NCBI GenBank assembly: GCA_964581365.1
Contig: CAZOOF010000003.1
Location: 28,042-92,041 of the forward strand
From: an uncultured Chromatiales bacterium
Lineage (GTDB): Bacteria; Pseudomonadota; Gammaproteobacteria; SZUA-140
Direction of reading: 5' to 3'
DNA: 64,000 nucleotides
Below the pieces are notes generated by a model, which did no database searches, was not told where the DNA came from, and worked only from the letters and a program-made list of their open reading frames with translations. Below, piece by piece: positions 38,388-49,507 of this stretch (positions are counted from its first letter, which is position 1; every line of letters starts with the position of its first letter). Made by a program: the position numbers and the translations under genes.

Positions 38388-39794
38388 ATGTTCAAGTATC
38401 TGCTGGCCAAAAACGAGGAGATCCCGCGCGGTACAGCGGCGGTCTACTTCGGTGTTTCTTCCATCATCTGGTTCGTGATCGGGACCGGCCTCGGCTCCTT
38501 CAACGCCGCCAAGCTCGCGTTCCCCGACTTCGTCACCGGCTCGGAGCTGTTCTCCTTCGGTCACATGCGCCAGGTCCACGTGATGGCCGTCATCTTCGGC
38601 TGGATCTCGATGGCTTTCGCCATGGCCATGATGTACATCACGCCGGCACTGGGAAATACCAAGCTCTGGTCTGAGAAGCTGGGCGTCTGGAACTGCTTCA
38701 TCTGGAACTTCGGTCTTTCTCTCGGCCTGACCGTGCTGTGGGCCGGAATGAGCTCTGGCCGTGAGTACTCGGACTTCCCGTGGTTCATCGACCTGGTGAT
38801 TCTGTTCGGCATCGTTCTGCCGCTCGGCATCAACGTGTGGATGACCATCATCAAGCGCCGCACCCAGGGTATCTACACCACCAACTGGTTCTTTGCCGCC
38901 GGCTGCTTCATGCTGTTCATCGTGCTTCTGGTCGGTAACCTGCCGGAGTACTTCCAGCTCACGGGTCTGACCGAGGCCTATCTGACCTGGTGGTTCGCGC
39001 ACAACGTGCTTGGACTGTGGATCACCCCGATCGCTGCGGCCATCGCGTACTACACCGTGCCGAAGATCACCGGTAATCCGCTGTACTCGCACCGCATCGG
39101 CCACCTGCACTTCTGGTCCGTGGTGGTGTTCTACTCCACGCCCGCTGCGCATCACCTGATGTCGGCGCCGCTGCCGGAGTGGCTGAAGTCCTTCGCATCG
39201 GTGGAGGGCGTGCTCATTCTGGTGCCGGCCATTGCGTTCGTGTCCAACCTGCTGCTGACCATGACCGGCAAGTGGCGGTACTTCGTCGACAACGTCGAGA
39301 TCAAGTTCACGATTACCGGCGTGCTGATGGCGATCCCGCTGAACATGCAGGGCGGATTCCAGCAGACCCGTGCCATCAACTGGTACATCCATGGTACCGG
39401 CTGGATCGTGGCGCACGCACACCTGGCACTGCTCGGCTTCTCGACCTTCCTCGAGGCTGCCGCCGTGTACTATGGTCTGCAGACGATCCTGCGTCGCAAG
39501 CTCTACTCGCTGGCGCTGGCTAACTTCCACTTCTGGTTCCTGCTGATCGGTTTCACGATCTACTGGATCTCCATGACGATTGCGGGCCTGATCCAGGGTG
39601 CCGGCAAGATCTATGAAGTGCCCTACATCGACGTCGTGATCGCGGAGCATCCGTACATGATCGCCCGTTGGGTTGGCGGCACCATGGTGTTTACCGGAAA
39701 CCTTGTCTGGCTCTACAACATGTGGATGACTGCGCGTGAAGGCACTGTGATCCCCGCGGGCCGTCTGCCGCACGAGATCGCCTACGAGCGCTAG
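38388..39794 (+). CDS. ccoN: C-family (cbb3-type) heme-copper oxidase subunit I, divergent
   Basis: H64, WWFAH205N, Y249-x5-H255H256, H343-x-H345 and REY motifs; 12 TM. Confidence 0.92.
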   Translation: MFKYLLAKNEEIPRGTAAVYFGVSSIIWFVIGTGLGSFNAAKLAFPDFVTGSELFSFGHMRQVHVMAVIFGWISMAFAMAMMYITPALGNTKLWSEKLGVWNCFIWNFGLSLGLTVLWAGMSSGREYSDFPWFIDLVILFGIVLPLGINVWMTIIKRRTQGIYTTNWFFAAGCFMLFIVLLVGNLPEYFQLTGLTEAYLTWWFAHNVLGLWITPIAAAIAYYTVPKITGNPLYSHRIGHLHFWSVVVFYSTPAAHHLMSAPLPEWLKSFASVEGVLILVPAIAFVSNLLLTMTGKWRYFVDNVEIKFTITGVLMAIPLNMQGGFQQTRAINWYIHGTGWIVAHAHLALLGFSTFLEAAAVYYGLQTILRRKLYSLALANFHFWFLLIGFTIYWISMTIAGLIQGAGKIYEVPYIDVVIAEHPYMIARWVGGTMVFTGNLVWLYNMWMTAREGTVIPAGRLPHEIAYER

Positions 39795-39840
39795 GAGACA
39801 AGTCCGCAATTATAAAAGGTTATGAGGGGAGGAATCAGAC

Positions 39841-40791
39841 GTGGCATTCCGTGAATATAAAATAGGTGCGCGACTGTTCGGTGTTGCGCTCGGCGGATCG
39901 ATGATGATCACCATCTACATGCCGAGCCTGGACATCGTTCAGGTGGCGTCGACCGAGATGGGCCTGCGCAAGGGTCTCATGTACGGCCGAGTCGGCGGGT
40001 TCTCGGTCGAAGATCCGTTCCTGCAGGGGGCGGGCAAGCCGGTTACCGTGGTCCTGCGTAAGGATCCGCGGAATGGTGAGCCCATCGATGAGACGTACGC
40101 CTACGTCTACGAAGCGGGCATTCCGTTCACCAGTTCCATCCGTCACCCGCGCATCATGGGTGAAGGCGTGGAGGACCTGAGTCTGCAGCAGGGTCGTATC
40201 GGCGAAGCTGATCAGAATCGGGGCGCTGTGTTCCTGGTGGTCGAAGGCCGCTGGAACGGTGAGCCGACGCACTACATCGAGAACGCGACGGCTACCCGCA
40301 ATTGGACGCCCGAGCTCATCCGCAACGCGGTTAGCGATCAGGACATGCACTATGTCGGCTCCGGCAAGATCATGTTCGTGCGTGAAGGCTGCTGGTGGTG
40401 TCATACGCTCCTCCCGGAGCAGACGCAGGACTGGCAGGCGTTCGGCGCTCCGCCGCGGCTGGGTGACTTCAACAGTGAGTCGCCGACTGCGTTCGGATCC
40501 GACCGCAAGGCGCCCGATCTGCTGCATGTTGCCTCGCGCAACTCCTCACGCGAGTGGATGGTGATGCACTTCTTTAATCCGCGTCTCGTTCAGCCGCACT
40601 CGATCATGCCCCGCTACGACTATCTGTGGGGTGAGGTTGATGCGGATGGCAACCGGATCGATTACAAGAAGTGGCGTGCCGAGTACAGCGAGTACGCCTC
40701 CGGCAAGCGGATCTATCCGCCGGAAGTGCCGGAGCCTGCCGCTGATAGCGACGCCCGCTATCTGATCGACTTCGTGCTGAGCCTCAAATAA
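39841..40791 (+). CDS. ccoO: cbb3-type subunit II with N-terminal periplasmic insertion
   Basis: REGCWWCH, GSDRKAPDL, HFFNPRLVQPHSIMPRY. Confidence 0.88.
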   Translation: MAFREYKIGARLFGVALGGSMMITIYMPSLDIVQVASTEMGLRKGLMYGRVGGFSVEDPFLQGAGKPVTVVLRKDPRNGEPIDETYAYVYEAGIPFTSSIRHPRIMGEGVEDLSLQQGRIGEADQNRGAVFLVVEGRWNGEPTHYIENATATRNWTPELIRNAVSDQDMHYVGSGKIMFVREGCWWCHTLLPEQTQDWQAFGAPPRLGDFNSESPTAFGSDRKAPDLLHVASRNSSREWMVMHFFNPRLVQPHSIMPRYDYLWGEVDADGNRIDYKKWRAEYSEYASGKRIYPPEVPEPAADSDARYLIDFVLSLK

Positions 40792-40807: not shown

Positions 40808-41443
40808 ATGGCCTGGAAATTCGATAACCCGCTCTATAGTCTGACCGATGAGGAGCAGAACGAGAAGGCGAAGGAGCTGTGGGAAAAGGAAGCCCTCGGT
40901 GGAATCACCGAGGACAACAACCGCCTGCCGCGTCCGGTGGTCTGGTTGCTTGCGCTTACCATCGTGAGCGCGTTCCTGATGACGTTCCCTCTCTGGGGGC
41001 AGCGTCCGTCGGCGGCAATCTATGAGGACTACGTCGCGCTGATGGATTCGCCTGAGATTCAGGCGATTCAGCAGGAACAGGGCGATGACGCTGCCATGGC
41101 TGCGATGGTCAAGAAGGTGCGCGACCAGGGCTCGACCTACCAGGGGCTGCTGGATCGTCATCCGCTGTCCATGAATGAGCTGCGTCTCATTCGGGATGAC
41201 ATCATCGAGCTGCAGAACACCCGGGTCGACCTGGAAGAGTACTCGGTTGTGGGTGACCAGGTTCTGCTGGCGAACTTTGAAGGCAACTGGAAGCCGGATG
41301 GGACTCGCGAGCGCAAGCAGCCGTGGTGGGACAAGGGGTACACGATCGACCTGTTTTACGTGACGTACTTCTGTCTGGCGGTGTTGATCGCGGTGAAGCG
41401 TCTGCCGAACTATCGTTGGCAGCCGACGCATCACGGTCACTGA
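40808..41443 (+). CDS. Heme-less CcoP-like subunit
   Basis: GGITEDNNRLPRP resembles the CcoP N-terminal motif; 2 TM; no CxxCH. Confidence 0.7.
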   Translation: MAWKFDNPLYSLTDEEQNEKAKELWEKEALGGITEDNNRLPRPVVWLLALTIVSAFLMTFPLWGQRPSAAIYEDYVALMDSPEIQAIQQEQGDDAAMAAMVKKVRDQGSTYQGLLDRHPLSMNELRLIRDDIIELQNTRVDLEEYSVVGDQVLLANFEGNWKPDGTRERKQPWWDKGYTIDLFYVTYFCLAVLIAVKRLPNYRWQPTHHGH

Positions 41444-41461: not shown

Positions 41462-41593
41462 ATGATCGATGTCGACAATCCACCGCTCATAGTCCTGATC
41501 CCGATTATCATCGTGTTCGTGGCGCCGTTCATTTACAGCTTCTTCGTCGACAAGTACGACAAAGCTACGCCGCCGCTGCGAGACGACGAGTAA
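41462..41593 (+). CDS. 43-aa single-TM microprotein (CcoQ-like position) MIDVDNPPLIVLIPIIIVFVAPFIYSFFVDKYDKATPPLRDDE
   Basis: RBS AGGAGA 41450-41455; not in ORF track; followed by hairpin and terminator. Confidence 0.75.
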   Translation: MIDVDNPPLIVLIPIIIVFVAPFIYSFFVDKYDKATPPLRDDE

Positions 41594-42071: not shown

Positions 42072-42353
42072 ATGAACTTTCTGCAATCGTTGCCGGATGG
42101 TTGGACCATCTACGTATGGCTGGTTGCTGGGGCGGCCATCATCTTTGCGGCGATTTACGGTTTGCGCTGGGCGCACCGTAATGAGCAGTTCGACGAGGAC
42201 ATCAAGTATCTGGTGTTCGACGAGAACGACAAGGAGAAGATGAGTCCCGAGGAGTACGCGAAGAGCCGCGAAGTGCTCGAGAAGCAGGTCAAGCGCCGGG
42301 AAGAAATCCGGCGGGAACGAGCGCAGCAAGCGGGCAGGCATGAGGACCGGTGA
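42072..42353 (+). CDS. ccoS: cbb3 oxidase maturation protein CcoS/FixS
   Basis: TM followed by WAHRNEQFDED...LVFDE; RBS AGGAGG. Confidence 0.75.
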   Translation: MNFLQSLPDGWTIYVWLVAGAAIIFAAIYGLRWAHRNEQFDEDIKYLVFDENDKEKMSPEEYAKSREVLEKQVKRREEIRRERAQQAGRHEDR

Positions 42354-42828: not shown

Positions 42829-43298
42829 GTCCGCAGACCAGACGCAACATCCTGGGAACCATTGCCGTACTTGCCGGCTGTGCCGTGGTCTACGTTGGCG
42901 ACTGGCTGGTCGGCGTGGATCTGGAGTTGTGGTGGGGACTGGCCACCTTTACTCCGATCTGGATGGTCGCAATGTTTGTAGTGCCGCTGATCTCCGGTCT
43001 GGTGTGCGCGATGATCTTCGGTCTGGGCGGAAAGTGGCTGTGTTATTTCCCTCCGCTTATCGTCCGTACCATCAATTACTTTGCCTACGTCTATGAGTTC
43101 AAGGTGCCGCCGCCTGGCGCCGAGCTGCTGTTCTTTCCCTACTGGATCATGTTCGTCATCTTGGTCGTGGAAGCGGCGGCGTTCGGGGGCGTGTTTGGAG
43201 AGATCGTCGTCAAGAAGACGTATGGTCGTCTGCCGCGGGAAATGGTGTACCGCAAGGCAGGTGATCAGTCGGCCGGTTCCGGAGGTCAGGGTGGATGA
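42825..43298 (+). CDS. Hypothetical 4-TM protein (start 42819 or 42825)
   Basis: Hydrophobic; overlapping stop/start junctions with both neighbours. Confidence 0.7.
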   Translation: MSPQTRRNILGTIAVLAGCAVVYVGDWLVGVDLELWWGLATFTPIWMVAMFVVPLISGLVCAMIFGLGGKWLCYFPPLIVRTINYFAYVYEFKVPPPGAELLFFPYWIMFVILVVEAAAFGGVFGEIVVKKTYGRLPREMVYRKAGDQSAGSGGQGG

Positions 43299-44356
43299 CC
43301 TCGACTCGTGCCTTGCCGCGTATAGATGAGGCCATCCGGCGGCGCCGCAAGCGCTACCTGACGGCGACGATTATCACCTGTATTGCTCTTGCCATGGTCG
43401 GTGGGAGCCTGCACATCGTGCAGCTCGGAGCCAAGCGCATGGAGGAGATGCGGGGCAAGGCGAGCTACGATGTCAGTGAGATGCGCTCGCGGATTCGGGC
43501 TGCTGGCGAGGAACTTCATCGTCACCGCCTCCACGAGGAAAGACAGACATTCGTCGAGTCCTATTCGGTGGAGGAGGCCGAGGCACTGCTCACGCCGGAG
43601 CAGTGGGCCGAGCTGGAGACGATGGTGACGATTCCCGCTGGGCCCTTCATCATCGGTACTAACCGGCCACGCAGCGCCGTGCAGGATCAGCCTGAACACC
43701 GGATAAATCTCCCTGCCTTCCGCATCGACACGTATCCGGTAACGAATGCGCAGTATGCCCGCTTTGTCGCGGCCACCGGGCATCGCCCGCCGCTGAACTG
43801 GGATCAGGGCCGGATTCGCCCGGGTACCGAGCTGCATCCGGTCACCATGGTTTCCTGGTATGACGCTAACGCGTATGCCAGCTGGGCCGGGAAGCGTCTG
43901 CCGACGGAAGCTGAGTGGGAAAAGGCCGCGCGAGGACCGGATGGCAAGCGCTGGCCATGGGGTGATCTCATGGATGCATCGCGCCTCAATACCTATTACA
44001 ACGTGGGCCGGACCACCGAGGTGACGCGTTACGTCTCCGGCGCCAGCGAGTACGGTGTCATGGACCTTGCCGGCAACGTCAGTGAGTGGACGAATGACAA
44101 CTTTCGCCCCTATCCCGGCAGCGATGCGCCGCCGGAGGTGTTCGAGGCGAAGATTGCGGTGGCCACAACGCCGCTGGATGAGGCAATGCAAGTTGTGGAT
44201 TTGGTCCCGGTGGACGGCAGCTACAAGGTGCTGCGCGGGGGTTCGTGGAAGAGCGACCCGTTCTCGACCGCTGCCTACCATCGGAATTATTCATGGCCGC
44301 ACTACGCTTCCGACTTCTTCGGGTTCCGGACGGCGGCAGATATCGTTACGGAATGA
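43295..44356 (+). CDS. Membrane-anchored FGE-sulfatase (NirV/pFGE-like) domain protein
   Basis: YPVTNAQY, RLPTEAEWEKAARG, DLAGNVSEW, RGGSW, GFR. Confidence 0.9.
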   Translation: MTSTRALPRIDEAIRRRRKRYLTATIITCIALAMVGGSLHIVQLGAKRMEEMRGKASYDVSEMRSRIRAAGEELHRHRLHEERQTFVESYSVEEAEALLTPEQWAELETMVTIPAGPFIIGTNRPRSAVQDQPEHRINLPAFRIDTYPVTNAQYARFVAATGHRPPLNWDQGRIRPGTELHPVTMVSWYDANAYASWAGKRLPTEAEWEKAARGPDGKRWPWGDLMDASRLNTYYNVGRTTEVTRYVSGASEYGVMDLAGNVSEWTNDNFRPYPGSDAPPEVFEAKIAVATTPLDEAMQVVDLVPVDGSYKVLRGGSWKSDPFSTAAYHRNYSWPHYASDFFGFRTAADIVTE

Positions 44357-44601
44357 TGAACGCTACGACTCTACGCAAGCTCTGGCTGTACTGTACGCTG
44401 GCCTTGCTGCCGCTGATGCCGGGGACCTCCCTTGCGTTCGACAGTTACAGGTACCTGCATGTCACCATCGACACGATCTGGTACATATTCGTGTTCCTGC
44501 TGCTCATTCTGCTGGTTCCATTCATCCTCATGGCAATCCTTTACTGGTGGACTCTGCGCCAGCGCAAGCTGGACAGCGAGCACTCCGAACCGAAACCCTG
44601 A
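44353..44601 (+). CDS. Small protein with signal peptide and one TM
   Basis: MMNATT...SLA/FDSYRY then a 25-aa hydrophobic helix; ATGA overlap. Confidence 0.65.
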   Translation: MMNATTLRKLWLYCTLALLPLMPGTSLAFDSYRYLHVTIDTIWYIFVFLLLILLVPFILMAILYWWTLRQRKLDSEHSEPKP

Positions 44602-44617: not shown

Positions 44618-44995
44618 GTGCACGCACGCTTTCACACCGCTGTCTGCGCCTTTCTGATGCTGCTGGTGGCAGCGCTGATGCTGGCGCCGGCCGGCGCCCG
44701 GGCGGCGGCGGCCGAACAGGGCACATCTTCCGATACCCAGGTGATTCAGGCATTTTCCGAGGCAATGCGTGAGAGTGCGCAACGCGCCGAAATCACCGAG
44801 CAGCGCAAACACGCCATTCTGTTTCTGATGGGCGTCGTGCTGCTGGTCTGCATGCTTGGCACCGCTGGCCTGGGTGTGGCTATGGCAATCTTTGGCAAGA
44901 AGGTGTTTGTGGCGCACACGATCTTTGCCGGACTCAGCGTTACTCTCGCCCTGGCGCATGCCGTGGTCGCAGTCGTCTGGTTCTGGCCGTTCTGA
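44618..44995 (+). CDS. Small membrane protein with H-x13-H helix
   Basis: GTG start, signal peptide, 2 TM, HTIFAGLSVTLALAH. Confidence 0.7.
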   Translation: MHARFHTAVCAFLMLLVAALMLAPAGARAAAAEQGTSSDTQVIQAFSEAMRESAQRAEITEQRKHAILFLMGVVLLVCMLGTAGLGVAMAIFGKKVFVAHTIFAGLSVTLALAHAVVAVVWFWPF

Positions 44996-45063
44996 CCATC
45001 GCTCTGGCGACCCCGGGATCGCCCGCAAATGACGCGATCATCCACCGATCAGGCGGCTCTTCG

Positions 45064-47688
45064 ATGAGCCGCCGTTTCCTTTATCTGCTTTACGCCTGTT
45101 CGGGAGCGACCAGCCTCGCCTTCGAGGTGTTGTGGGCGCGCATGCTTTCCCTGCAGTTCGGCGTCAGTATCTTCGGTGTCGTGGTGACCATCGCCGCCTT
45201 CATGGCCGGTCTGGGCCTCGGCTCGCTGTTCGGTCTGCGGCTGGGGCGGACCAGCCGCAGACCTCTGGTCGCTTTTGCCTGTCTGGAGGGGGGCATTGCC
45301 ATCTATGCGCTGGCATTGCCGTCGCTGCTGTCGGGTGCCGAATCTTTCCTGTTGCAAGTGGCTGCCGGGGCGCCACTACAGACCTGGTATCTGTTTCAGT
45401 CCGTCGCGCTGCTGGCGCTGATTCTGCTGCCGGCTGTGGCGATGGGCGCGGGCTTCCCCCTGGTGCTCAAGGCGCTCGGCGCGCGCCCGCATGTCCTCGG
45501 CACCCTGTATGGTGTCAACGCATTCGGTGCCGCTCTGGGCGCTTTGCTGCCCCTGTGGCTGCTGCCCCGGTTTGGTTGGATGGCGGCAGTCGAAGCGGTA
45601 GCTGTGCTCGGTCTGCTGGTGGGTACATTCGCTGGCGCGCTCGCCTGGCGCGGCGAGTTTCGTGTGATTCCCGAACCGGGGATGAGGGCGGTCGATCGGC
45701 AGCGGCCAGCTCTGGTCTCACTGGTGGCCTACGCGGTCATTGGCGCCGCTGCCATCATGCTCGAGGTGGCCTGGACCCGCCTGTACGGGATGGTTCTGCT
45801 GCGCACCGAGTATGTGATGGCGGTGATTCTCGCCGTCTATCTCCTCGGTATCGGCGGCGGCAGTCTGCTTGCGCGCTGGCTGCGAGATTCGCGCTGGCTG
45901 GCCGTGTTCCCTCTGGCGGCCGCATTGCTGGCTTTACCCAGCCTGTGGCTCTTGCCGGCGATCTCGACCTGGTCGCAGGGTCAGGATTTCGGTTCTCTAT
46001 GGACGGCGCTGCTGGCTGAAGGGCTGGTGTTGGCGGCAGTGACTTTGCCTGTGACACTGCTGCTTGGCGCCTGGCTGCCGCTGCTCGCCCGGCGCTACGG
46101 CGACGAGGGATCATTCGGCCCGCTGTTCTACGGCGTGAACTCGGTCGGTTCGGCGCTGGGGGGCCTGCTCGCCGGTTTCGTGTTGATTCCATTGCTCGGG
46201 ACACCGGCAACCCTGGTGGCGGCGGCGCTCGCGCTTTTCGTTGCCGGTTGCGTCTGGGCTCCGTCCCCTCGTATCTGGCTGGCCTTCCCCCTGCTGCTCG
46301 TCGCGTTCTGGCCGGTGACGGATTTCCCTCCGGTTGCCAGGCTGGTGCCCGGGATGCACGCCGCCAGTGAGGACCTGTACCGCTATGAGGACGCGATGGC
46401 GATCACGCACGTGATCGAGCAGGCCGATGGGCAGCGTCTGCTGCTGAGCGATCTGCAGCGTATGGATGCCTCCAGCGAGCAGGCTGCGGTCGAACTGCAG
46501 AAGAACCAGGCGCGACTGCCGCTGATGCTGCATCCCCGTGCGGAATCGATCCTGTTTCTGGGGCTGGGGACGGGTATATCGGCTGCCGGCGCGCTCGAGT
46601 TTCCGGAGCTGCAGAAGCGCGCTGCGGTCGAGCTTTCGCTCGGTTCGATTCGCGCCGCGCGGGACTGGTTCGCTCCGGTCAATGAGGGGGTCATCGGACA
46701 GATGACCGTGGTGCGCGATGATGCCCGCCGTTATCTCATGGCGGATGAGGCTCAATGGGATGTCATCGTCGGTGACGTGTTTCATCCCGATCTGGTCGGA
46801 CGCAGCGCGCTGCTGTCCGTTCAGCAGTTCGAGCGTGCACGCTCACGTCTGGCACCGCAGGGCATTTTCGTGCAATGGCTGGCTCTGAACCAGTTCGACC
46901 ACGATTCCCTGCAGGTGGTGCTGCGCAGTTTTTCCCGGGTGTTCCCGGACGGCGTGATGTTCATGGACGGGTTTCGCATCGCGATGGTCGGCGGCCTGGG
47001 GGGAAGGGACCCGGTTCGCTGGATGGATTCGCTCCGCGCCCGCGACGAGGCTCTGGAGGCTGGCGAAGGAATCTGGACCTGGCTCGGGCGCTATTGGGGC
47101 ACGATTCCGCCGGATGACGGCGGACCGGTGCAGGATGAGTGGCGTCCCCATATCGAGTTCCGTCTGCCACAAGCGCGCTATGGCGGTGGCCTGGGACTCG
47201 ATCAGTTGCTCGATTGGTTGCTGCGCATCCGTCCTGAGTCGTCGCGCGCCGCCAGCGAGCTTGGCGTGACGCCCGCCGACCGCGAACGTTTCGAGGCCTG
47301 CTATACAGCCTCGGATCTGGCACTGAAAGCCTGGCTTGCGGGACTGAGGGGCGATGTGCCCCAGTCGCGGCGTCTGCTGCGCTTTGCCTGGGAAGCGAAC
47401 CCGGAGGATCGCTGGACAGGTTTCTCGCTGGCGGACAATATTCTTGCGGAACTGCAGGAATCACCGCGGGGGCTGGAGGACAGGCGTCGCGTACTGGAGG
47501 CCGTGCTTTCCATCAGGCCGGATCATGCCGATACCCTGCGCGCGCTGTGGCATCTCGACGCCGCCCTGGGGCGCCATGAGAGCGCTGCGGCCTGGTTCGA
47601 GCGCCTTGCCGAAGTCAGTCCGCTCGATCGCGAGGTGACGGCAGCGCGGGCTGCTGAGCACGGTGCGGCAACGCCGCCTCCAAAGTGA
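45064..47688 (+). CDS. Fused polytopic membrane domain plus spermidine-synthase-like SAM-binding domain
   Basis: Duplicated TM motifs (EVLWAR/EVAWTR; YGVNAFG/YGVNSVG), LFLGLGTGI, DARRYL, DVIVGDVFHP. Confidence 0.85.
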   Translation: MSRRFLYLLYACSGATSLAFEVLWARMLSLQFGVSIFGVVVTIAAFMAGLGLGSLFGLRLGRTSRRPLVAFACLEGGIAIYALALPSLLSGAESFLLQVAAGAPLQTWYLFQSVALLALILLPAVAMGAGFPLVLKALGARPHVLGTLYGVNAFGAALGALLPLWLLPRFGWMAAVEAVAVLGLLVGTFAGALAWRGEFRVIPEPGMRAVDRQRPALVSLVAYAVIGAAAIMLEVAWTRLYGMVLLRTEYVMAVILAVYLLGIGGGSLLARWLRDSRWLAVFPLAAALLALPSLWLLPAISTWSQGQDFGSLWTALLAEGLVLAAVTLPVTLLLGAWLPLLARRYGDEGSFGPLFYGVNSVGSALGGLLAGFVLIPLLGTPATLVAAALALFVAGCVWAPSPRIWLAFPLLLVAFWPVTDFPPVARLVPGMHAASEDLYRYEDAMAITHVIEQADGQRLLLSDLQRMDASSEQAAVELQKNQARLPLMLHPRAESILFLGLGTGISAAGALEFPELQKRAAVELSLGSIRAARDWFAPVNEGVIGQMTVVRDDARRYLMADEAQWDVIVGDVFHPDLVGRSALLSVQQFERARSRLAPQGIFVQWLALNQFDHDSLQVVLRSFSRVFPDGVMFMDGFRIAMVGGLGGRDPVRWMDSLRARDEALEAGEGIWTWLGRYWGTIPPDDGGPVQDEWRPHIEFRLPQARYGGGLGLDQLLDWLLRIRPESSRAASELGVTPADRERFEACYTASDLALKAWLAGLRGDVPQSRRLLRFAWEANPEDRWTGFSLADNILAELQESPRGLEDRRRVLEAVLSIRPDHADTLRALWHLDAALGRHESAAAWFERLAEVSPLDREVTAARAAEHGAATPPPK

Positions 47689-47720
47689 AAAATAGCCTGC
47701 TACATGCTAGAATTCGCAAT

Positions 47721-49049
47721 ATGTACCACTCCAAGGCACTGTCCAGTATCCCGGTCGTAGTGACCGCGGACGCAAGGGCCGGACGGAGATTGCGCGGAAG
47801 GCGTCGTGCGGTACAGCTCGGCACCCTCCTGCTCGCGATGCTCATTCCGCTGTCCGGTCTATTCCGTATCGATCCGGTGGCTGGCGCCTTCGTGGTGCTC
47901 GACCGTCAGATCTGGTTCGCCGATTTCTACATCGTCGTCGGCCTGTGGATGGCTGTTTCCAGTGTGCTGGTCCTGACCTATTCCTTGGTGGGAACCGCAT
48001 TCTGCGGCTGGTCCTGCCCGCAGAATACGCTGGCGGAGTGGGCCAACCGCATGACGACACGGCTGCTGGGGAAGCGTGCCCAAATCAATCTCGACGGGGA
48101 ACCGATCAAGGTTTCCGCGGGCAAGGACAAGGCGCTCAACTGGGTGATTCTCGGCAGCCTGTTCCTGCTCGCCGCGATGGTGATCGCCATCATTCCGATG
48201 CTGTATTTCTACACGCCCGAGCTGATCTGGCGCTTCATCACTTTCCAGCACGACGCCCGACTGGCTGATTCCCTGCACTGGATCTACATGATCTTCGTGC
48301 TGGTGATGTTCGTGAACATCGCCTTCGTGCGCCATTTCTGGTGCCGCTTCATGTGTGTGTACCGGGTCTGGCAGCATACCTTCAAGACGCGCGAAACGCT
48401 GCATATCGCCCATGACAAGAGTCAGCCCGACGAGTGCGCGCGCTGCAACTTCTGTGAAACCTCGTGTTTCATCGGCATCGATCCGCGTGAAACGGTGGTC
48501 TATGATGCCTGTATCAATTGCGGCGATTGCATTACCGCGTGCAGTTCGATTCGCGGTGCGCGCAAGACCGGCAACAGCCTGCTGCGATTCGAATTCGGGG
48601 AGCGCAGCGAAGAGGCGGACAGACAGCAGGATCGCGGCCGCCACAGTAACGTCGGTTCCGTGATGAAGCGCGCTCCCTGGGCGACGGCGCTGACCGTCTT
48701 TGGTCTGGTTCTGTTCGCCTGGGGCATCATCACCTATGATCCCGTCCATCACACGGTTTACCGTGCCGAGTCGGTGCAGGGCGGGCAGATCAACGATTAT
48801 CGCGTCAACGTCGCGAACAAGCTCTATCGGCCCATGAGTCTGACCGTGAGCTTGGAGGGCCTGCCGGACGGGGCGTATCGACTGGCGTCTGGCGTGGTTG
48901 ATTTTACCGAAGCCGGTCGGCAGGACGTCCGTCTGGAAATCGCCAATTCCCTGTCCCCCGGACTGTATCCGTTCCTGGTGCATGTCGATTCCGAGGACGG
49001 CAAGCGGCGCACGTTCCGCGTCCATCATTTGGTCCAGGAGGGTGCATGA
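47721..49049 (+). CDS. ccoG: CcoG/FixG-like 4Fe-4S membrane protein
   Basis: CGWSCPQ, WCRFMC, CARCNFCETSC, CINCGDCITAC; C-terminal Ig-like domain. Confidence 0.82.
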   Translation: MYHSKALSSIPVVVTADARAGRRLRGRRRAVQLGTLLLAMLIPLSGLFRIDPVAGAFVVLDRQIWFADFYIVVGLWMAVSSVLVLTYSLVGTAFCGWSCPQNTLAEWANRMTTRLLGKRAQINLDGEPIKVSAGKDKALNWVILGSLFLLAAMVIAIIPMLYFYTPELIWRFITFQHDARLADSLHWIYMIFVLVMFVNIAFVRHFWCRFMCVYRVWQHTFKTRETLHIAHDKSQPDECARCNFCETSCFIGIDPRETVVYDACINCGDCITACSSIRGARKTGNSLLRFEFGERSEEADRQQDRGRHSNVGSVMKRAPWATALTVFGLVLFAWGIITYDPVHHTVYRAESVQGGQINDYRVNVANKLYRPMSLTVSLEGLPDGAYRLASGVVDFTEAGRQDVRLEIANSLSPGLYPFLVHVDSEDGKRRTFRVHHLVQEGA

Positions 49050-49507
49050 GTTCGGACAAGTCTACGCAGGAAGCAAAGGGCAAGGATACGCGCCCGCTGG
49101 ATCCGGTAGAGTCAGAGTGGGGTCAAGTCTCGCCGGACCATTACGGTTATGCCTCCGAGGAGGAGCGGCTGGCGAAGCGCGGCCTCGAGGACTGGGAGCT
49201 GGTCGATCGGATCTCCGAGTCACAACGCGGTGTGCCGGTGTGGTTCATTGCGGTGATCATCATGGTGCTGCTGGTTGCCATCGGTCTCAGTTTCCCGTTC
49301 TGGGGAGACCGGCCGGGCTACGAGCGCGAATGGATCAACTGGGGTTTTGGTGCCGCAATCGTCTATCTGCTGATCTTCGGCACTTTCGTCTATTTCATGG
49401 TGCAGCTGTACGGTTCGCGCTGGGCAGGGCGCCTGGACTCCGACCCAGACAAGAGCGACGAAAAGAACGCGACGTCCGAAAGGAAGGATGCCGGCGACGC
49501 TCCATGA
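49046..49507 (+). CDS. 2-TM paralogue of the heme-less CcoP-like subunit
   Basis: ISESQRGVP..TM..LSFPFWGDRP versus ITEDNNRLP..TM..MTFPLWGQRP in 40808-41443. Confidence 0.7.
   Translation: MSSDKSTQEAKGKDTRPLDPVESEWGQVSPDHYGYASEEERLAKRGLEDWELVDRISESQRGVPVWFIAVIIMVLLVAIGLSFPFWGDRPGYEREWINWGFGAAIVYLLIFGTFVYFMVQLYGSRWAGRLDSDPDKSDEKNATSERKDAGDAP

Follow-up and report, generated by a model that had tools for sequence, protein, structure and literature searches.

In plants, loss of the acidic residue of the GGG(D/E)G loop switches spermidine synthase (SPDS) to the S-adenosylmethionine (SAM)-dependent methyltransferase PMT, and in Datura SPDS the substitution D103I alone abolished aminopropyl transfer and created SAM-dependent methyltransferase activity (PMC3725402). 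A second such case is the fungal NHMT (Aspergillus nidulans AN4663), a proven methyltransferase that is annotated as a spermidine synthase and has Ile at the acidic position of the Gly loop. This SpdS-fold enzyme is anchored by seven transmembrane (TM) helices, methylates the N-terminal His of lytic polysaccharide monooxygenases (LPMOs), which are secreted copper enzymes, and requires its N-terminal 7-TM domain for activity (PMC10349129). Here we describe a bacterial gene that invites comparison with both, located in a window of 64,000 nucleotides, the whole stretch of DNA analysed, from an uncultured Chromatiales bacterium (contig CAZOOF010000003.1, positions 28,042 to 92,041). The open reading frame (ORF) at 45064-47688 (+ strand) has an ATG start and encodes a protein of 874 amino acids (P0001), in which an MFS-like membrane domain, a SpeE-like domain and a TPR-like tail are fused according to its translation, its match to the family model NF037959 and an AlphaFold2 (AF2) model. 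The gene lies in a cluster encoding a divergent haem-copper oxidase. We consider it an accessory factor of this oxidase cluster, and not a spermidine synthase, with a probability of about 0.85. The more complete mechanism suggested by analogy, an NHMT-like SAM-dependent methyltransferase whose target would be an exported part of the oxidase system and which may work with an FGE-like protein encoded nearby, is more tentative, and we put it at somewhat under even odds.

The SpeE (PABS)-fold domain (residues 436-680; 46369-47103, +) consists, in the AF2 model, of N-terminal beta-hairpins and a Rossmann core. Pfam Spermine_synth matched residues 483-632 with 25.7 bits, slightly above the gathering score. 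The top 50 matches listed by Foldseek against the PDB were all aminopropyltransferases, with a TM-score of about 0.65 on the target, and none of these 50 was a membrane-fused counterpart. Active-site residues were mapped by HMMER alignments to the SpeE structures 1uir (T. thermophilus) and 1iy9 (B. subtilis), a cross-check by hhalign to the SpeE of the same genome gave a consistent mapping, and invariance was scored over 64 orthologues of 50-87% identity. The domain has the complete PABS fold of SpeE (1uir, 1jq3, 1iy9, 3o4f), N-terminal beta domain included, and shares with it the Gly loop, the acidic residue that binds ribose at the end of strand 2 (E523), the DD(G/A) motif (D552-D553-A) and the first catalytic Asp (D571). 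The fold and the adenosyl-binding residues of an aminopropyltransferase (E523, D553, D571) are thus present. What differs from SpeE, apart from the fusion to a membrane domain, is the remainder of the active site. The Gly-rich cofactor loop G500-L-G-T503-G504 (46561-46575, +) carries Thr in place of the Asp/Glu of GGG(D/E)G, with T503 aligning to E of 1uir and D of 1iy9. The Y-H-E of SpeE corresponds to L478-Q479-K480, and in the loop D566-V-I-V-G-D571-V-F-H574-P-D576 (46759-46791, +), placed by HMMER and hhalign, the second acidic residue of D-x-x-(D/E)-P is replaced by H574. An earlier reading made from the sequence only (the sequence-only reading) had pointed to a SAM-binding GLGTG fold and to DVIVGDVFHP, with His where aminopropyltransferases typically have Asp; these are residues 500-504 and 566-575, and the His falls on the position that it had supposed.

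Invariant in 64/64 orthologues were G500, G502, T503, G504, E523, D553, D566, G570, D571, F573, H574, P575 and D576. The invariance of the adenosyl-binding residues indicates that the adenosyl half of the site is under strong selection. Of the residues expected in an aminopropyltransferase, the acidic residue of the Gly loop was found in none of the 64 orthologues, and the amine-site Tyr and the second acidic residue were likewise missing (LQK, H574). Judged from these alignments, the residues that define the use of decarboxylated SAM (dcSAM) and the binding of a diamine are swapped for a different, equally conserved set. Thr in place of the acidic residue favours methyl transfer over aminopropyl transfer. 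The scores against the SpeE equivalog models were far from their cut-offs (TIGR00417, 31.5 versus 249.55; PRK00811, 50 versus 260; PRK03612, 67.3 versus 472). A canonical SpeE (GGGDCG, DVIIVDSTDP) is encoded on contig C4 of the same genome and SpeD on contig C67, showing that spermidine synthesis is provided elsewhere in the genome. As these were the only SpeE- and SpeD-type matches of the genome, the remark that no polyamine genes are nearby agrees with our results for these two types; other polyamine genes of the window were unscreened. On the residues, the model cut-offs and the separate SpeE and SpeD, we ruled out a canonical spermidine synthase.

The gene is embedded in a respiratory cluster, as the sequence-only reading had proposed, and the association holds well beyond this genome. 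The oxidase core (38388-40791, +; Pfam and NCBIfam) consists of a divergent C-family pair, a CcoN-like subunit of 468 amino acids and a FixO-like subunit of 316 amino acids, and several c-type cytochromes are encoded in the cluster; the oxidase is a divergent, CcoP-less cbb3-type enzyme. The CcoN-like gene (38388-39794, +) encodes the only full-length haem-copper oxidase subunit I of the genome, which has one cytochrome bd oxidase besides. Three contigs of different lineages share the gene order CcoN-like (468 aa), FixO-like, haem-less FixP_N-like, small proteins, cytochrome c, membrane protein, FGE-like, a gene for about 75 amino acids, a gene for about 130 amino acids, the fused gene and a CcoG-like gene. 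Neighbourhoods were then scored in 80 loci anchored on the fused gene, with loci of sufficient flank as denominators. An FGE-like gene lay within 2.5 kb upstream in 73/73 loci, a cytochrome c gene upstream in 66/66, a CcoN-like gene within 8.5 kb upstream in 55/56, and a CcoG-like gene directly downstream in 63/70. Anchoring on CcoN gave the same picture. Among the 60 loci with enough downstream sequence, the fused gene was in its canonical place in 54; of the remaining six, one had an inverted accessory operon beside CcoN, four had the orthologue elsewhere in the genome, and in one it lay on the same contig at a distance of about 15 kb. An orthologue was therefore present in all 60 genomes. 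CcoN relatives were found in 358 genomes, close to the approximately 375 for the fused gene. In the order to which the host belongs, the gene was present in 33 of 36 genomes, and the other three also had no CcoN-like gene, so that the co-occurrence with this CcoN clade, listed earlier as a check, was borne out. By gene content and order, the gene is a fixed member of the oxidase cluster rather than a chance neighbour.

In Ca. Tenderia and iron oxidisers from fresh water, the cluster itself has been reported as a conserved stretch of about 26 genes, for which the role of "a sort of alternative complex IV" was put forward; the fused gene is not mentioned there (10.1101/2022.05.06.490989). No paper found by our literature search described a function for this gene. 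Metatranscriptome contigs from compost, at 99-100% identity and low depth, were found across the cluster and point to its expression; one of them spans the junction between the fused gene and the CcoG-like gene. Median identity across loci was 85% for CcoN and 52% for the fused protein. In a related observation, Gamma- and Betaproteobacterial lineages shared 84-99% amino-acid identity in the CcoN-like subunit and only 46-67% in the accessory genes; this conservation would indicate either extreme constraint or a recent horizontal spread of the core.

The protein belongs to an already named, uncharacterised family, NCBIfam NF037959, "fused MFS/spermidine synthase", which it matched with 79.9 bits (cut-off 40, E=1.6e-22) over residues 228-629; its N-terminal repeat gave a second match at model positions 2-180. 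The architecture of the family, a polytopic domain N-terminal to a PABS fold, was found here as 13 AF2 helices followed by the SpeE fold, and the MFS-like character of the polytopic domain, the one extra helix and the TPR tail, which is frequent in the family, are shared as well. A search over 1.84 billion representative proteins returned 18,911 matches at E<=1e-3 and 4,179 at E<=1e-30. Full-length orthologues scored 540-875 bits, and paralogues of the same architecture (MFS_1, Spermine_synth, TPR) about 270 or less, a gap by which we assign the protein to one discrete orthogroup within NF037959. What sets this orthogroup apart from the family at large is its own invariant GD[LV]FHPD motif and its fixed place in the oxidase cluster; distant paralogues differ in the motif (e.g., DLFVPW, DLFHPA). 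Orthologues occurred in about 375 species genomes, mostly of uncultured Gammaproteobacteria including the former Betaproteobacteria, among them Chromatiales, Ectothiorhodospiraceae, Gallionella, Sideroxydans and Ca. Nitrotoga. Among 50 paralogues, 30 matched Pfam MFS_1 and matches to the TPR_CcmH_CycH model were present; no fusion that would be diagnostic for a cellular compartment was found in these 50, only MFS_1, Spermine_synth, TPR and a few methyltransferase matches. The short "representatives" P0161-P0173 turned out to be contig-end fragments or chimeras and were uninformative on topology as split-gene relatives, and the genome scan yielded no close relatives of paralogue P0180.

The genome of the host encodes a second fused MFS/SpeE-like gene, a single-repeat form of 526 amino acids (C52:13001-14581) with the motifs GLGGG and DLIILDVYQAE. 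A free-standing six-helix half-MFS gene (C52:9407-10018) lies about 3 kb upstream of it. Together, this pair would imitate the 12+1-helix layout of the protein described here. The 6+1-helix layout is shared by single-repeat bacterial members of the family, of which the 526-residue paralogue is an example, and other single-repeat members are found in PspA-linked operons (PMC11237479).

AF2 modelling from the alignment of the 64 orthologues gave a mean pLDDT of 90.7 and a pTM of 0.89. In the model the membrane domain consists of two six-helix repeats. Repeat 1 (residues 1-195; 45064-45648, +) was delimited by AF2 and by BLASTP to repeat 2, with helices at residues 2-32, 35-63, 67-100, 105-138, 144-170 and 172-195. 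Repeat 2 (residues 217-398; 45712-46257, +), delimited by AF2 and the repeat alignment, carries the motif R247-T248-E249-Y250 in a predicted periplasmic loop, which is invariant in the orthologues. Residues 10-187 and 222-395 align with 32% identity (E=3e-17, BLASTP), and the motifs E-x-x-W-x-R and Y-G-x-N-x-x-G-x-x-x-G are present in both halves; the internally duplicated multi-TM domain noticed in the sequence-only reading is thus real. With two homologous six-helix halves, 12 helices in all, P0001 shows the hallmark by which an MFS protein is recognised. Pfam MFS_1 did not match P0001 at E<0.01, and the orthologues P0083, P0085 and P0117 carry a precomputed PF07690 match. Conserved within the membrane domain were E-x-x-W-x-R (helices 1 and 7), Y-G-x-N (helices 5 and 11), E75 and T327/T331, and conserved intramembrane residues of this kind argue that the domain exceeds the role of a plain anchor. 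A thirteenth hydrophobic helix (residues 402-418; 46267-46317, +) follows after a three-residue turn in the AF2 model. At the C-terminus, the helices of residues 697-866 (47152-47661, +), seen before as a helical tail, are TPR-like by AF2, Pfam and profile match: Pfam TPR_19 matched residues 809-864 (E=1.3e-4, below the gathering score), and the orthologue profile matched designed TPR proteins at E=3.6e-6. At the other end of the gene, a G+C-rich hairpin of 8 pairs, GGCGGCTCTTCGATGAGCCGCC (45052-45073, +), encloses the ATG, and by its position could restrain the initiation of translation.

The distribution of charges and of conserved loops points to a particular orientation of the protein. Loops on the N-terminal side contained on average 14.6 Lys+Arg in the 64 orthologues and those on the opposite side 3.5, a bias that places the N-terminus and the end of helix 12 in the cytoplasm, like in MFS proteins. 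Helix 13 contains an uncharged run (median length 17 residues, mean Kyte-Doolittle value 1.81 across these orthologues) and is predicted to carry the chain outward to the periplasmic side. The invariant loop motifs R247-T-E-Y, F32-G-x-S, P168..G171-W172 and P376..G379 are all on the predicted periplasmic side, and the predicted cytoplasmic loops are variable. Cys made up 0.03% of the catalytic part and 0.01% of the TPR part in the orthologues, compared to approximately 1% in the long ORFs of the genome; the catalytic part was Cys-free in 58/64 and the TPR part in 63/64. In addition, the constant neighbours (the FGE-like protein and two small proteins with signal peptides) are exported or anchored on the outside. 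Taken together, these features suggest that the catalytic and TPR domains are probably on the periplasmic face.

The closest characterised analogue of this arrangement is the fungal NHMT. By the published description of NHMT, in both proteins a membrane domain precedes an SpdS-fold domain, the acidic position of GxG(D/E)G is taken by a non-acidic residue (Thr in the bacterial protein, Ile in NHMT) and the ribose-binding Glu is conserved, and both are mis-annotated as spermidine synthase. The substrates of NHMT are secreted copper enzymes, and the context here is a haem-copper oxidase cluster. The proteins differ in that the bacterial one has 13 helices (6+6+1) instead of seven, although single-repeat members of its family have 6+1, and in its TPR tail. 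Plant PMT resembles it as a SpeE fold made into a SAM-dependent methyltransferase by loss of the GGGDG Asp (PMC3725402); unlike PMT, which is soluble and cytosolic and has kept its putrescine site, the membrane-fused protein has its amine-site residues replaced too. It resembles the ccoGHIS and CcoA systems by location, in an accessory operon downstream of ccoNO beside CcoG-like and CcoS-like genes, but has no sequence relationship to CcoH, CcoI, CcoS or CcoA. We know of no such enzyme in the biogenesis of canonical cbb3 oxidases.

We therefore favour, with the reservations given, a methyltransferase that would bind SAM rather than dcSAM. In the mechanism that we propose, the 12-helix MFS-like domain and helix 13 would bring the catalytic and TPR domains out to the periplasmic side of the membrane, where the TPR repeats would recruit an exported substrate and the invariant D571/H574/D576 site would transfer the methyl group. 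Candidate substrates are a membrane or periplasmic protein encoded in the cluster or a client of the FGE-like partner. The MFS-like domain, with its invariant intramembrane Glu/Arg pairs, would carry SAM outward and S-adenosylhomocysteine (SAH) back, or otherwise supply the active site. For the plant Golgi, SAM transporters of the MFS type have been put forward (10.1101/2021.07.06.451061; PMC9946043). The boldest form of this mechanism is a cross-membrane methylation machine in which the MFS half would hand cytoplasmic SAM to a periplasmic SpeE-fold methyltransferase that, with its FGE-fold partner, would modify an exported oxidase component, for example by methylating a histidine or the N-terminus close to a copper or haem site; we regard this form as rather unlikely. 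Ergothioneine and ovothiol biosynthesis provide familiar cases of an FGE-like domain paired with a SAM methyltransferase (EgtB with EgtD; OvoA). The sequence-only reading had proposed a methyl- or aminopropyltransferase acting on a lipid, quinone, haem or an oxidase subunit or microprotein. Its departure from an ordinary SpeE stood, as the defining residues are replaced, and T503 favours methyl transfer. Quinone and haem b as targets did not fare as well, since a predicted periplasmic enzyme domain disfavours targets on the cytoplasmic side and favours an exported protein. The new chemistry in oxidase maturation that it envisaged we treat as a hypothesis.

Several points weigh against the methyltransferase mechanism. 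To our knowledge, no NF037959 protein has a demonstrated substrate, cofactor or activity, and the bacterial periplasm is not known to contain SAM. In sequence, the SpeE-like domain resembles true SpeE (E about 1e-10) more closely than it does METTL13 (5wcj), a human SpdS-fold methyltransferase that matched the orthologue profile weakly (E=0.03). The periplasmic orientation is drawn from sequence rules only, and helix 13 is short (17 residues). Paralogues of the wider family are not depleted in Cys (0.64%, with odd counts common), which makes the Cys argument weak and specific to the orthogroup; as a family-wide marker of topology, Cys depletion was rejected, holding in the orthogroup and failing in the paralogues. 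The RNA evidence for the cluster, finally, is of low depth, and carry-over of DNA is possible.

Other explanations share part of this evidence. The SpeE-like enzyme might be cytoplasmic and make a small methylated or alkylated amine, which the fused MFS domain would export for the oxidase system, with helix 13 as a membrane-embedded linker. Both SAM and dcSAM are found in the cytoplasm, the residues that bind the adenosyl group are intact, the soluble part of the paralogues has unpaired cysteines, 30 of the 50 paralogues match MFS_1 as noted above, and the fusion of an enzyme to an exporter follows a common logic. However, an MFS fold already ends in the cytoplasm, which would make a conserved and fully hydrophobic helix 13 superfluous; the conserved loop motifs are on the opposite side; the soluble part of this orthogroup is nearly Cys-free; the TPR tail suggests a protein partner and not a small molecule; and the constant partners are exported. 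We consider such an exporter unlikely. The same membrane fold could instead belong primarily to a transporter that serves oxidase biogenesis, importing copper like CcoA or carrying another solute, and the SpeE and TPR parts would be its sensor or gate. CcoA is an MFS copper importer needed by canonical cbb3 oxidases, a CcoG-like gene adjoins, and an MFS-like fold of 6+6 helices, with polar residues kept invariant inside the membrane, would suit a carrier. Yet helices 7 and 8 have no conserved motifs of the CcoA type (MxxxM, HxxxM), M47, M243 and M467 are the only invariant Met, and there is no invariant His in the membrane; a CcoA-like copper importer was ruled out on these grounds. The missing MFS_1 match of P0001 speaks against transporters more generally, which would in addition leave the invariant cofactor-binding site unexplained, and a primary role in transport appears improbable.

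With regard to the SpeE-like domain, a genuine aminopropyltransferase would transfer the aminopropyl group of dcSAM to an unusual acceptor, for example an amine of a protein, the head group of a lipid or a long polyamine. The best sequence matches and, among the matches listed, the best fold matches are all aminopropyltransferases, the SpeD encoded in the genome makes dcSAM available, and the first catalytic Asp, D571, is retained. On the other hand, in 64/64 orthologues Thr stands in place of the Asp/Glu whose role is to bind the aminopropyl amine and to repel the carboxylate of SAM, the equivalent substitution abolishes SPDS activity (PMC3725402), the amine-site Tyr and second Asp are missing, and the equivalog scores are far below their cut-offs (31.5 versus 249.55 and 50 versus 260). 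It is very unlikely that aminopropyl transfer is the function. If instead the lost SpeE catalytic residues mark a non-catalytic protein, the SpeE-like module could be ligand-binding or structural, the membrane domain an anchor, and the TPR part could, in the manner of CcmI/CycH, hold apo-cytochromes or oxidase subunits while they are assembled. The TPR-like tail, the several c-type cytochromes of the cluster and the paralogues matching TPR_CcmH_CycH fit such a scaffold or chaperone. The cofactor loop, the ribose-binding Glu and the D-x-F-H-P-D loop are nevertheless invariant in the 64 orthologues, which is unexpected for a decayed site, and the invariant intramembrane Glu/Arg/Asn argue against a mere anchor, so that a scaffold seems quite unlikely to us.

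Among the genes around the fused gene, the FGE-like gene is its most constant neighbour. It encodes a membrane-anchored protein of the FGE-sulfatase fold (353 aa; 43295-44356, +; Pfam FGE-sulfatase, E=3.4e-57) whose single Cys is located in the membrane anchor. In six Nitrospinaceae genomes (L177:7071-10856; L178, L179, L181, L182, L195) a paralogous MFS/SpeE/TPR gene with the motifs GQGSGV and ISEPSNPW directly follows a gene for a TM-anchored FGE-fold protein, and no oxidase genes were found within 8 kb of this pair. In one further contig, L092, a secretin gene stands between a family member and the FGE-domain gene two positions upstream. This pairing without nearby oxidase genes suggests a module independent of the oxidase, and the FGE-like and SpeE-like pair may thus be a module of its own that was recruited into the oxidase cluster.

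Two small genes separate the FGE-like gene from the fused gene. The first (44353-44601, +; translation, with the start codon inferred) would encode an exported membrane protein of about 82 amino acids with a signal peptide and one TM helix; its likely start overlaps the stop of the FGE-like gene, and genes for 72-81 amino acids are found at the same place in L006-L009. The second (44618-44995, +; start codon inferred), directly upstream of the fused gene, would encode a conserved protein of about 125 amino acids with a signal peptide, two TM helices and a short acidic periplasmic helix, ending in the tail FVAH...AHAxVxxVWF(Y/F)PF. The two His of this tail (FVAH...AHA) are near-invariant, and the His pair or the tail could be metal or haem ligands or the ligand of the TPR repeats. 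In these two exported proteins no conserved mature N-terminus was found that could be a substrate candidate, such as a His; only their C-terminal membrane parts are conserved. Downstream, the TGA of the fused gene (47686-47688) overlaps the GTG at 47685, the earliest possible start of the CcoG-like gene, with the next ATG codons within 35 nucleotides; the earlier placement of the stop just upstream of ccoG is confirmed. The CcoG-like gene (47685-49049, +) encodes a polyferredoxin that matched TIGR02745 with 103 bits, below the cut-off, as well as Pfam Fer4_5 and Fer4_18.

Further small proteins of the cluster were observed in passing. Two haem-less proteins (40808-41443 and 49046-49507, +) have a common FixP_N-like anchor, FP(L/F)WG(Q/D)RP; one is encoded after FixO and the other after the CcoG-like gene, and the pair is conserved in most loci. 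Between the haem-less FixP_N-like gene and the cytochrome c gene there is an ORF for a single-TM mini-protein of 43 amino acids (41462-41593, +). A protein of 93 amino acids (42072-42353, +) is CcoS/FixS-like by eye, with one TM helix followed by RNEQFDEDIKYLVFDEND.

Relative to the named family, what is new here is an oxidase-specific orthogroup with a non-canonical active site. The oxidase of the cluster, with its 84-99% amino-acid identity, is common to iron-, sulfur-, nitrite- and electrode-oxidising bacteria (Gallionella, Sideroxydans, Ferrovum, Ca. Nitrotoga, Ca. Tenderia), and the family of the fused gene comprises more than 4,000 clusters at 50% identity without known function. The gene is thereby an entry point both to the role of the "fused MFS/spermidine synthase" family and to the assembly of unusual oxidases. 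If true, a periplasmic methyltransferase would extend the principle of the fungal NHMT to bacteria and imply SAM chemistry outside the cytoplasm. If methylation does take place across the membrane, it would be the first case of SAM-dependent modification of a protein in the periplasm of bacteria, and would add a new step to the maturation of oxidases.

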